The translations under genes and the position numbers were made by a program. From the sequence record DRR378314_1653: a stretch of DNA of 29,595 nucleotides. The stretch is one strand, 5' to 3'. This document shows, one piece after another, positions 15,701 through 18,700 of this stretch. The notes beneath the pieces are model-generated. The model had not been told where the DNA came from and did not search any database. It saw nothing but the letters and a program-made list of their open reading frames with translations. Numbering within the stretch: position 1 is the first letter of the stretch; each line of letters begins with the position of its first letter.

Positions 15701-18700
15701 GTCGAGGGCGTACAGGCGTCGTTCCTGAATCGGCCAGAGCTGGGGACAACAACAACCGGCAACGACGGTCGATTTATTATTGCCGGGCCTGCCGGCGAGC
15801 AGACCGTAGTGTATGAAAAGCCCGGGTACCTGGTGGTTCAGCGCACAACGATTGGAGCGTCGAGTGGGTGGTCAAACCTTGAAGACGTAATGCTACTGCA
15901 GCGCGACAGCAAGCAAACATTGATCGATATTGGCTCTGCTGAACCCCAGGTTCACCAATCCACGCTCATCAGCGATGAGTTCGGTGAGCGCCGGGCCACG
16001 GTGGTCTTCAATGATATTGCCTCCGCGACAGTGCATTCCGCGGATGGAAGCACCCGGGAGTTGGAAGACTTCCTGCTGAGCGCCACCGAATTTGAAACCC
16101 CGGCCTCCATGCCAGGTGAGCTGCCCAGAGAAACAGCCTTTACCTATGCCGCGGATTTGCATGTGGCTGGCGTTTACTACAGCGACAGCGTTGTATTCGA
16201 CAACGACGTTGTGATGTTCGTCGACAACTTCCTTGGTTTCCAGGTGGGTGAGATCGTACCGATCGGTTCCTTCGACCGGCTTGGAAACGAGTGGGTAGCC
16301 TCATCGAACGGCGTTGTGGTTCAGGCACTGGATCAGAGCGGTGATGGAAGCATCGACGGCGTGGACTACACCGGAGATGGTGTTGCGGATGATCTCAATG
16401 GTAACGGGAATACGGAAGACGACGCACTGGGCCTGGACGGCTATGAGCCGGGTGACACGCTTTGGTGGGGTAGCTTTAACCACTTCTCTACCAAAGACTA
16501 CAACTGGGGCTCCAGCGAAGACGAGGCGCCAACTCTGATTAATATCGACCTTGTGGAGTTGCTGGAAAATAATGAAGAGTTGGAATGTACCGGCTCGTTT
16601 GTTAAGCCCTTCCAGCAATCCTTCCATGAGGACATTTCCATTGCGGGTACTGCTCTGACTCTGCACTACTCCAGCCAGAGAACTGAGGGCTACAAACACA
16701 AAGCCCACATCAAGGTCAGTGGCGATAGCATTCCCTCCACCCTTGAGCGCATGTTTGTGAAGCTCGAAGTAGCTGGCCATGTATTTGAGCGCGAGTTGGC
16801 ACCGGCGGAAAATACCGAGGTGGAATTTATCTGGGACGGCACGCGGGTTGATGGTGTGCGCCCGGAGGGCATGGTCAGTGGCCGTGTTTCCATCGGGTAC
16901 GAATACCCTGCGCTCTACCTGAGCTCCGGGAATGCGGCGGAAGAAGACCGTGACCTCTCTGAGTTCCCGGTAGCATGGGCCACCACGGGCGACAGTGTGA
17001 CTCAGGTACCGGGTCGCCAAAATTACACCAGTTGGCAAACCCGGGGCGTGTCTTTCAAGAACAGCTTCGATCGGCAGTTGGCCAATGGCTGGTCGCTCTC
17101 CAACGTCCACGAGTTTGATCCCGCCGGGCAAGTCTACCTTGGCAATGGTGGCGTGGTTGATGTTGAAACCCAGTCGCTGATCCTCAAGACCGGGCTCACC
17201 TACAGTCTGGTCGACGGCGACGACGGCTATTACCAGAGCGGTGGCAGCAGCATCGATTACACCGTCAATGACCAGGGCATTCTGGTAGACAAGGTAACGG
17301 GGCTGGAATGGGAATTTGTTGACCAGCCGTATGAAACCCGCACCAAAGCAGACGCTCAAGCGTACTGCGAAGTGGAAGTGGGGTCGGGCTGGCGCCTGCC
17401 CACGGCCAAGGAAGTTGGCTACAACATCGAAAAGTCCGGCGCTAACGTCGGGCCAGCTATCTACAGCCTGAACCGCGCTACCAACCTCTGGCACCAGAAC
17501 TCGGCCAATCCGGATGAAAGTCTGAAGCCCGTCATGTGCGTGCGTGGTGAAACCATTGACGAGCGCTATGTCCAGGGATTGCAACGCGATAGTAGCCAGC
17601 AAGTGGTCGTCGACCAGGAAAACGGGTTGATGTGGCAGGACGCACCGGAAAACACCAGCCAGAAACTGGATTGGGAGGCCAGCATCCAGCATTGTGAGGC
17701 CTCCAGCTTCGCAGGATTCGAGGACTGGCGCCTGCCGAACATCAATGAGCTGCTCTATGTTCTGCCGAATGACGTCTTTGCGCACCAGACCGACATGGTC
17801 ATCCCGGATGGAGAGTACTGGACCCCCGAGGCAAGTTTCCGCAAGCCTTACTGGAGCTCCACAACCAACTTCCAGGATGACGACCAGGCCTGGGCAATCG
17901 AAAGCGCGAGTTTCAACAGCGAGCGGTTGAGCAAAACCGATGAATACAGCGTTCGCTGCGTTCGGGATGCTTCTTCCGCATCCCGCATGCCCTATCGCTT
18001 CGATAGCGAAGGCCGGCACATTGCCACCATAGACCTGGATAGCGGTAAAACCCTGGTGGAGTTCGCCTACAACGAAAACGGCAAGCTCAACGAAATTTCC
18101 GACCGTTTCGGCAACATCATATCCATTGAGCGAAATGCCGAAGGCAAGCCACAGCGGATTGTGGCACCGGATGGCCAGATTACTGAACTGACTGTCAATG
18201 AGCAGAATAACCTCAGTGCCCTGACCTACGAAGATGGTAGCGACTACCAGTTCTTCTATCAGGCTGGCGGCCTGCTGACTGAGAAGGTTGATCCCAACGG
18301 TTACAGCTACCCTCATGAATTCAATGAAAATGGCCGCGTCTACCAGACCCGGGATCCGGAAGGCGGCCAGTGGGATTTCTTCGATAACAGGGTAGGTATC
18401 GGCCACAACGAATACGGCTACACCACAGCCGAGGGTAATCAATACCAGACGGTGCGCCGAGTGCTGGAAAACGGAGATGTCCGCAAGGAAATCACCTATA
18501 AGAATGGCTCCACACTGGTGGACATTCTGCGGGCGGACCAACTTCAGCAGACCACCTCATACGGCGGTGTCACCACGGTTGTGGACAAGGTGTTGGATTC
18601 CAAGACGTTGCAGGAAATCCCCAGCGTTATCACCATCACCCAGCCCAGTGGCCTCGCCAGCACCACAACCATGACGAAGACGTATGGCCAGAATGGTGCG

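Follow-up and report, generated by a model that had tools for sequence, protein, structure and literature searches.

Introduction

In animal nervous systems, teneurins serve as key receptors for wiring, and the specificity for their partners is set by the NHL propeller. Among their recently characterised bacterial relatives, the teneurin-like proteins (TLPs), the cryo-electron microscopy structure of the Bacillus inaquosorum TLP (BiTLP) showed the domains in the order TTR, TIP, FN-plug, NHL, YD shell and C-terminal domain (CTD) (10.1101/2025.11.11.687626; PMC13018210; both cited here and below for their accessible text). In PMC13018210 the TLPs are defined by hidden Markov model hits to the FN-plug, the NHL and the YD-shell, and their superfold organisation "remains invariant across phyla". 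The earlier structural papers, in their accessible text, also describe bacterial relatives only with NHL. Here we analyse a stretch of 29,595 nucleotides (nt) from the sequence record DRR378314_1653, which as a whole is called the window. It carries the gene of a teneurin-like polymorphic toxin of 3712 amino acids (aa), P0001, located as a single open reading frame (ORF) at 9764..20902 on the plus strand, as are all the features given below, and recognised by its Pfam and NCBIfam content and by phmmer. Between the FN-plug and the first YD strand, this protein carries a tandem pair of Lcl_C (DUF1566) domains, and no NHL propeller.

Of the described systems, BiTLP (PDB 9ifo/9pt5; Raoelijaona et al., Nat Commun 2026, PMC13018210; we take these chains to be the BiTLP entry) has the same TTR, TIP, FN-plug, YD shell and Rhs core with the PxxxxDPxG motif, and is also alike in its short polymorphic CTD, its small downstream gene and the conserved Ser at the FN-plug cleavage site. 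It differs in having an NHL propeller where the tandem Lcl_C pair stands here; moreover, the stalk is much longer in our protein (1960 aa), with RTX-like repeats and a second Lcl_C pair. The metazoan teneurins (PDB 6fb3, 6ske, 7bam, 8r50, 8fia) share the superfold of FN-plug plus YD shell and the TTR domain. The Rhs effectors of type VI secretion systems (T6SS) and the TcB-TcC cocoons of the Tc toxins (8uxt, 8h8a, 7q97, 6h6e, 4igl) share the YD/Rhs shell, the core autoprotease and the encapsulated toxin, which is presumed in our case. Unlike them, P0001 has no PAAR, VgrG or clade domain and no SpvB/TcB propeller plug in Pfam and NCBIfam scans of the whole protein, and its shell is closed by an FN-plug of the teneurin type. 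Neither T6SS nor TcA genes were present among the nine larger neighbouring ORFs scanned; the remaining ORFs are all shorter than 300 aa.

Results

An Lcl_C pair stands in the place of the NHL propeller

When aa 1950-3712 were compared with all PDB chains by phmmer, the "Teneurin-like protein" 9pt5_A (E 1.6e-169) and 9ifo_A came out on top, far ahead of the other chains. The alignment with 9pt5_A consists of two blocks. In the first, aa 1965-2487 pair with chain residues 400-941 (TTR, TIP and FN-plug); in the second, aa 2745-3602 pair with residues 1278-2146, which comprise the YD shell and the Rhs core. The 336 residues 942-1277 of 9pt5_A, which we take to be the BiTLP NHL propeller, are without counterpart, and 257 residues stand here instead. 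BLASTP of aa 1950-3712 against 24 other TLPs gave the same two blocks in 23 of them, the left block ending at aa 2454-2514 and the right one starting at aa 2733-2750; the remaining protein, P0115, stops before the shell. In the NHL-bearing TLPs the unaligned part comprises about 320-500 aa, and Pfam confirmed TEN_NHL and NHL repeats in the three that were checked (P0070, P0076 and P0156). From these breakpoints we place the cassette at aa ~2467-2743 (17162..17992). Within aa 1951-3600 it alone fails to align to NHL-bearing TLPs. Because some BLAST blocks extended to aa 2514, we asked whether aa 2467-2514 retain part of the first NHL blade. This idea was dropped: the slot region alone, used as the query against the other TLPs, aligned at the two junctions only and gave nothing in this stretch, and the conserved "KTG.T...GDDGYYQ.GG" stretch is part of the cassette.

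The initial annotation, made from the sequence alone, had claimed two DUF1566 units and no NHL between the FN-plug and the YD entry. The strings on which it relied are in place in one ORF (CTGSFVKPF at aa 2275, nt 16586; GLEWE at 2513; GLMWQD at 2621; YRFDSEGRH at 2744), and Pfam bears the claim out, with the qualification that unit A is short and divergent. Thus, Lcl_C/DUF1566 (PF07603) matched twice in aa 2470-2744, with 101.6 bits jointly, and TEN_NHL (PF25021), NHL (PF01436) and other propeller families gave no match there in Pfam at E<=1. Unit B (aa ~2608-2736; 17585..17971) is of full length: scanned separately, it matched over aa 2613-2734 with 84.2 bits, covering profile positions 1-117 of 117. 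Unit A (aa ~2499-2597; 17258..17554), recognised by a weak Lcl_C match and by the model described below, is homologous to unit A of a second Lcl_C pair located in the stalk. Each unit has a conserved Cys pair, Cys 2535/2592 in unit A and Cys 2644/2732 in unit B, and these two pairs are the only Cys residues after aa 2000 other than C2275 and C3661.

The cassette is flanked by teneurin-type domains on both sides. On the left are a TTR-like domain (TTR_TEN1-4; aa 1961-2042; 15644..15889), with a PF25020 match of 31.6 bits (cut-off 27), the TIP (aa 2043-2262; 15890..16549) and the FN-plug (aa 2263-2466; 16550..17161). The TIP has no Pfam family and aligns unbroken to residues ~480-700 of 9pt5_A, the region named TIP in the bacterial TLPs (PMC13018210; 10.1101/2025.11.11.687626). 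The FN-plug was recognised by PF24329 (FN-plug_TEN1-4) at aa 2316-2382, by the alignment to 9pt5_A and by the model. On the right are the YD shell (aa 2744-3521; 17993..20326), with PF25023 at 147.5 bits and RHS_repeat at 147.7 bits in 11 stretches, and the Rhs-associated core (aa 3522-3600; 20327..20563; TIGR03696 of NCBIfam, 82.5 bits). Set beside the published definition of the TLPs, the FN-plug and the YD-repeat shell are present and the six-bladed NHL propeller is absent; of the accessory features, the TTR and TIP are present, as are the Rhs autoprotease motif and the short CTD, with predicted cleavage. The one departure from every described TLP or teneurin is the module between the FN-plug and the first YD strand. 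The protein is otherwise a TLP in every respect and is best filed as an NHL-less branch of the TLP family.

Predicted structures

Two AlphaFold models were analysed. Model 1 covers aa 2260-3459 (1200 aa) and was computed from an alignment with 25 relatives (mean predicted local distance difference test, pLDDT, 84.5; predicted template modelling score 0.76). Foldseek placed 9ifo_A first (E 1.6e-70, template modelling score 0.68), followed by 15 teneurin entries. VIA-align superposed model residues 8-1200 on residues 714-2001 of 9ifo_A with Z 26.5 and a root-mean-square deviation (rmsd) of 2.4 A over 875 residues, which is roughly the 1200 residues minus the insert and the low-confidence loops. 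A single rigid superposition already holds from model residue 8 onwards; in the model, the FN-plug therefore sits in the shell's mouth, as it does in BiTLP. The model also superposes on the teneurin structures (VIA Z 20-25, 854-871 residues aligned); the Z values were 15-19 for the Rhs effectors and about 12 for the Tc toxins. The insert (model residues 240-480) has five helices among short strands, and thus is not an all-beta propeller.

Model 2 covers aa 2262-2760 (499 aa), with a mean pLDDT of 68.5; values of 80-95 are reached by the FN core as well as the Lcl pair, and low ones occur where the absent shell would enclose the chain. It was searched with Foldseek and also, without Foldseek, by VIA against 48,161 representative chains. 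All 16 Foldseek hits at E<=1e-3 were teneurins or the TLP. The FN-plug (model residues 51-172) superposed on residues 760-884 of 9ifo_A with Z 12.2 and rmsd 1.4 A over 82 residues, so that aa 2275-2466 model as the FN-plug that the initial annotation had read there. Likewise, aa 2470-2740 modelled as alpha/beta domains of C-type-lectin-like character, with no propeller. Neither of the two model outcomes that the initial annotation had named as refuting it was thus obtained. Unit B (model residues 343-475) has a C-type-lectin-like fold in the model. Its best match is the CTD of the Legionella pneumophila protein Lcl (Lcl-CTD; 8q4e_A), at Z 13.2, rmsd 2.6 A and 21% identity over 111 residues, which also took rank 17 in Foldseek. 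It headed the VIA ranking; behind it came the 9ifo_A FN-plug, then the FN-plugs of teneurins, one domain from Bdellovibrio and, at Z 8-10, C-type lectin domains by the dozen. Unit A shows alpha/beta secondary structure at pLDDT ~80-90 and is covered by only a few two-domain fold matches, starting at model residue ~295.

Lcl-CTD, the namesake of Lcl_C/DUF1566, shares with unit B the fold and the Pfam membership. It differs in being a single domain that ends a collagen triple helix and forms a trimer binding sulphated glycosaminoglycans, with no disulfides (PMC11162425, accessible text, as below), whereas P0001 has two different units arranged as a tandem within a monomeric scaffold, and both of them carry a conserved pair of Cys residues.

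TLPs with the Lcl_C pair form a family, nearly all in marine Gammaproteobacteria

A search with aa 2199-2799 against 5.8 billion clustered proteins scored 8000 candidates, 155 of them at E<=1e-5, and the best 120 of the 155 were studied. In 56 of these 120 clusters the coverage of aa 2199-2799 was 98-100%, at 40-95% identity. PF07603 is listed in all 56 full-coverage clusters, and PF25021/PF01436 in none. The named sources are Marinobacter, Alcanivorax, Rheinheimera, Arsukibacterium, Shewanella, Reinekea, Gilvimarinus, Marinimicrobium, Leucothrix, Pleionea, Aliikangiella, Natronospira and others. At source they are annotated as "DUF1566 domain-containing", as "Lcl domain-containing" or as "RHS repeat-associated", and in no case as teneurin-like. 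The member proteins are already public under uninformative names; the novelty lies in recognising the architecture and the slot exchange, rather than in the sequences.

A genome scan with one genome per species found at least 76 distinct loci. At least 20 of them match the whole query of FN-plug, pair and YD entry, and include isolates of Marinobacter, Rheinheimera, Shewanella, Pseudoalteromonas and Aliikangiella; note that locus L009 is truncated at the contig end. Of the 20 listed, all are titled Gammaproteobacteria except a 2.7-kb contig of a "PVC group" metagenome-assembled genome; Marinobacter sp. MBR-99 (81%) comes closest to our protein, followed by M. salexigens (80%). The family is therefore nearly all marine Gammaproteobacteria.

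The slot is filled by unrelated modules

The TTR-TIP-FN-plug part alone (aa 1950-2470) was run with HMMER against 1.84 billion representatives, giving 3705 matches at E<=1e-3, of which 2125 were at E<=1e-30; the best 150 of the 3705 were used. The slot survey comprised 251 relatives from the listed matches. In each we determined where the FN-plug ends and where the shell begins; 165 had both landmarks. Slots were classified with profiles made from the Lcl pair, from two NHL regions and from one Laminin_G_3 region. Among the 165, 100 slots carry NHL, 58 the Lcl pair and 4 Laminin_G_3 (P0084, P0126, P0131 and P0153, in which Pfam places Laminin_G_3 inside the slot), and 3 are unclassified. The slots are 184-690 aa long, and none is empty. 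No Pfam family was found in the three unclassified slots (P0125, P0151 and P0211). The slot of P0211, 336 aa with a repeat-like pattern, may be a divergent propeller. Those of P0125 (215 aa) and P0151 (198 aa) show no BLAST likeness to each other or to Laminin_G_3, and may be further kinds of slot filler. As a separate observation, the slot of P0133 has only 184 aa and still matches TEN_NHL with 84 bits; it may be a shortened propeller.

In the best 150 alone, 104 relatives had both landmarks (78 NHL, 20 Lcl, 3 Laminin_G_3 and 3 unclassified); of the other 46, 44 were truncated and 2 had no left anchor. Since these 150 were ranked by similarity to our protein, the proportions describe a sample and not a census; within this sample, 26 of the 104 complete relatives, about a quarter, have no recognisable NHL.

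The trees are unrooted and rest on the flanks alone, with 400 aa taken to the left of the slot and 800 aa to the right. The FastTree tree had 128 rows, 38 of 166 having been dropped for truncated flanks; in it a single branch (support 100, length 0.24) has all 50 Lcl-slot tips on one side. A short IQ-TREE search (LG+G4) with 49 rows, made of the query, a random 14 of 49 Lcl proteins, a random 28 of 72 NHL proteins and all 6 others, also put the Lcl group on one side of a branch, with a Shimodaira-Hasegawa-like approximate likelihood ratio test (SH-aLRT) value of 100. With 58 clusters, at least 20 genome loci and one group on the flank trees, the NHL-less subfamily postulated by the initial annotation is supported. 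Five other NHL-less proteins, two with Laminin_G_3 and the three unclassified, adjoin the Lcl group (SH-aLRT 95). The Laminin_G_3 protein P0153, by contrast, lies inside an NHL group as the sister of the NHL-bearing P0156 (SH-aLRT 100), and therefore represents an independent exchange of the slot. NHL-bearing TLPs stand on both sides of the midpoint, and published reports describe NHL for every teneurin and for TLPs from six phyla (10.1101/2025.11.11.687626). For these reasons we read NHL as the older state, which implies at least two, and probably three, replacements.

The Lcl_C pair is inherited within the clade

Within the clade the pair behaves as its surroundings do. Across 41 members the mean pairwise identity is 0.50 in the FN-plug, 0.54 in the linker, 0.42 in unit A, 0.53 in unit B, and 0.42 and 0.41 in the shell segments, and no hypervariable segment was found in the pair across the 41 homologues. 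The GC content of the slot is 0.576, compared to 0.562 and 0.575 in the flanks, and is continuous over both junctions. The Lcl_C pair is an old, integral and conserved part of the protein, inherited within the clade and not shuffled today. The idea of a swappable slot, put forward in the initial annotation, thus stands on the deep evolutionary scale, with Laminin_G_3 in four TLPs, one of them beside an NHL sister, and fails within the clade.

Lcl_C domains are also found elsewhere in these proteins. Extra Lcl_C domains were present in 46 of the 58 Lcl-slot TLPs, compared to none of the 100 NHL-slot TLPs. In P0001 they form a tandem pair in the stalk (aa 933-1212; 12560..13399; Lcl_C 97.7 bits), which aligns collinearly with the slot pair (31% identity, E 3e-26). 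An origin of the slot pair by intragenic duplication of the stalk pair was considered; it is not specifically supported, because tandem pairs of the unrelated P0100 (90.8 bits) and P0072 (86.2 bits) score at least as well as the stalk pairs (54-60 bits).

Predicted cleavage sites, toxin and candidate immunity gene

The Rhs motif PVNWIDPKG (PxxxxDPxG) occupies aa 3591-3599, and the cut is predicted after L3600. R3567, D3572 and D3596 have the same offsets from this predicted cut as the catalytic triad R2111, D2116 and D2140 of BiTLP. BiTLP has a second cleavage site, G723|S724 (10.1101/2025.11.11.687626). G2277-S2278 of our protein aligns on it and is a predicted autoproteolytic site in the FN-plug. 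All 41 of the 41 members have S2278, and in 35 of them a Cys precedes it by two or five residues. If it behaves as BiTLP does, the protein would be cleaved both at G2277|S2278 and after L3600. C2275 (nt 16586-16597) adjoins the predicted FN-plug site, and the CTD contains a single Cys, C3661 (nt 20744-20746). In BiTLP a disulfide links the plug to the toxin (C719-C2216; 10.1101/2025.11.11.687626), and a C2275-C3661 disulfide might be its counterpart here.

The polymorphic CTD (aa 3601-3712, 112 aa; 20564..20902) is the presumed encapsulated toxin. It is followed by a candidate immunity gene of 233 aa (20899..21600), whose ATG overlaps the TGA of the toxin gene (ATGA) and whose product has a hydrophobic C-terminal part. 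Neither the CTD nor this ORF matched a Pfam family. The CTD differs in seven of the eight relatives in which the motif search found the boundary, and is 86% identical in the eighth, from M. salexigens (L002). There the shared CTD is followed by a 67%-identical ORF, in an orthologue whose shell has an identity of only ~80%; no other neighbour from the window was located there. The GC content is 0.481 in the CTD and 0.377 in the downstream ORF, compared to 0.55-0.58 in the surrounding sequence. Given this low GC content, and a CTD/ORF pair shared with M. salexigens despite differing neighbours, the two look like a laterally exchanged toxin/immunity module. Their sequences fit the pattern of a mobile module of this type, with the downstream ORF as the putative immunity gene. 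A complex prediction of the CTD with the 233-aa ORF (score 0.00, mark 0.34, run without controls) weighs neither way.

Stalk and neighbourhood

The N-terminus (aa 1-29; 9764..9850) is hydrophobic, with a Kyte-Doolittle 19-residue maximum of 2.25 at aa 7-25, and probably is a Sec-type signal peptide, judging by its hydropathy. The N-terminal stalk (9851..15643; 1960 aa including the N-terminus), delimited with Pfam and NCBIfam, contains RTX/HCBP-related repeats, Ig-like He_PIG/Big_9 domains at aa ~732-904 and four PKD domains at aa ~1230-1560, in addition to its Lcl_C pair. A strongly conserved stalk region at aa ~1640-1770 (~14690-15070) resembles CAP/SCP, with a weak match of 18.8 bits (cut-off 21.1), and PF00188 is among the precomputed domains of two relatives.

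The neighbours in 1-9763 and 21601-29595 are ordinary chromosomal genes: a Na+/H+ exchanger, oxidoreductases, an RlmA-like methyltransferase, a DUF4124-TPR protein, a LysR/PBP-like regulator and a subunit of NADH-dehydrogenase type.

Discussion

We consider it probable, with good confidence, that P0001 is a secreted TLP toxin in which an Lcl_C pair replaces the NHL propeller. Because the published census required an NHL match, a protein of this type escapes it; by the same design, the claimed invariance of the superfold holds only within the NHL-selected set. None of the papers listed in our literature searches connects teneurin-like or Rhs proteins with DUF1566, Lcl or Laminin-G domains. DUF1566, Lcl and laminin are absent from the main text of PMC13018210, as far as accessible, whose supplementary list of 139 genomes might contain members of the clade; DUF1566 and Lcl are likewise absent from the accessible text of the preprint 10.1101/2025.11.11.687626.

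By analogy with BiTLP, the protein may work as follows. In a host that is probably a Marinobacter-like marine gammaproteobacterium, it would be exported by Sec and displayed by its long adhesin-like stalk, which leads into the teneurin superfold. The FN-plug would close the N-terminal mouth of the YD-repeat shell. The Rhs core would close the other end of the shell and cut the chain after L3600, a second autoproteolytic cut would occur at the FN-plug site, and the 112-aa toxin would then be kept inside the shell. The product of the overlapping downstream gene would be the immunity partner that protects the producer. The Lcl_C pair would be exposed where the NHL sits, outside, between the FN-plug and the first YD strand, and would recognise a component of the target surface, most likely a polysaccharide or glycan; the toxin would be delivered to neighbouring cells. 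We favour a polysaccharide as the ligand because sulphated glycosaminoglycans are bound by Lcl-CTD and because the fold is shared with the C-type lectins. That the pair binds a ligand at all we regard as about evenly balanced. For the TLP family as a whole, no mechanism is known for the exit of the toxin from the shell or for its delivery (PMC13018210).

Several points weigh against this interpretation. Scanned separately, unit A gave only a partial match (aa 2506-2580; 22.4 bits, compared to a cut-off of 34.9), and the FN-plug, with 27.3 bits, lies 0.5 bit below its Pfam cut-off of 27.8. The place of the pair is established along the chain, and its position in space, relative to the shell or to the NHL, is presumed. 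Since the pair is as conserved as its flanks and has the same GC content, it is no rapidly exchanged cassette within the clade. No secretion or delivery genes were found in the window, where the nine larger neighbouring ORFs were scanned. Moreover, Lcl-CTD is without the classical calcium and carbohydrate motifs of the C-type lectins and acts as a trimer (PMC11162425), so glycan binding by a tandem pair would not be automatic. Finally, the functions are deduced from sequences and models.

The pair could instead be a structural brace without ligand, a space filler that holds the FN-plug in position. In teneurins the NHL has been described as "held in place by the FN-plug"; the pair is as conserved as the scaffold, with no hypervariable stretch, and the conserved DUF1566 residues are mostly core residues in Lcl (PMC11162425). 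On the other hand, three unrelated folds have been found in the slot, the propeller, the lectin-like pair and the ConA-like Laminin_G_3, and all are typical binding modules; in addition, the distribution of the extra stalk Lcl_C domains (46 of 58 compared to 0 of 100) suggests a shared ligand rather than packing. We therefore think a pure brace unlikely. Somewhat less likely still is that the NHL-less state is ancestral and that NHL, Lcl_C and Laminin_G_3 filled the slot independently, with no replacement. The trees are unrooted, and the Lcl group and the five other NHL-less TLPs lie together on one side of a branch, as this idea would have it. It is made less likely by the NHL-bearing TLPs on both sides of the midpoint root, by P0153, nested with full support beside its NHL sister, and by the presence of NHL in TLPs of six phyla and in all metazoan teneurins (10.1101/2025.11.11.687626); moreover, an ancestrally vacant slot has no representative among the 165 TLPs, the shortest slot of which has 184 aa.

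Two further explanations have very little to recommend them. DUF1566 is a recurrent target domain of diversity-generating retroelements (DGRs), which are its best-known context, and the DGR variable proteins TvpA and Mtd were among the fold matches (Z ~8), so the units might be variable regions of such an element. There are, however, no direct repeats of at least 40 nt anywhere in the window, hence no template/variable pair, no reverse transcriptase among the nine larger neighbouring ORFs, and no hypervariable segment in the pair of the 41 homologues. For these reasons a DGR is not involved here, and we consider this explanation highly improbable. An assembly chimera or a decaying gene, conceivable because the window may be derived from a metagenome, is the least credible of all: the frame is intact over 11.1 kb, the GC content runs on at both junctions, and the same domain order recurs in at least 20 independent genome loci, including those of isolates, which refute it.

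The lectin-like pair in the place of the NHL shows that the slot in an otherwise fixed teneurin scaffold is exchangeable. It enlarges the family, and makes the slot its likely specificity module. We suggest, tentatively and with less than even confidence, a wider reading: the slot may be the address label of the whole teneurin/TLP superfamily, setting the docking surface, with the propeller, the lectin-like pair and the ConA-like domain as alternative labels. In the clade described here the toxin might then have changed its target, with a surface polysaccharide taking over from a protein partner and the same Lcl_C module serving twice, on the shell as well as in the stalk. If true, this would give the role of NHL in the bacterial TLPs a directly testable meaning. 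The natural variants of the slot offer a means to ask what the exposed domain of the TLPs does and how these toxins find their targets, which is of clear interest for research on teneurins, TLPs and polymorphic toxins.

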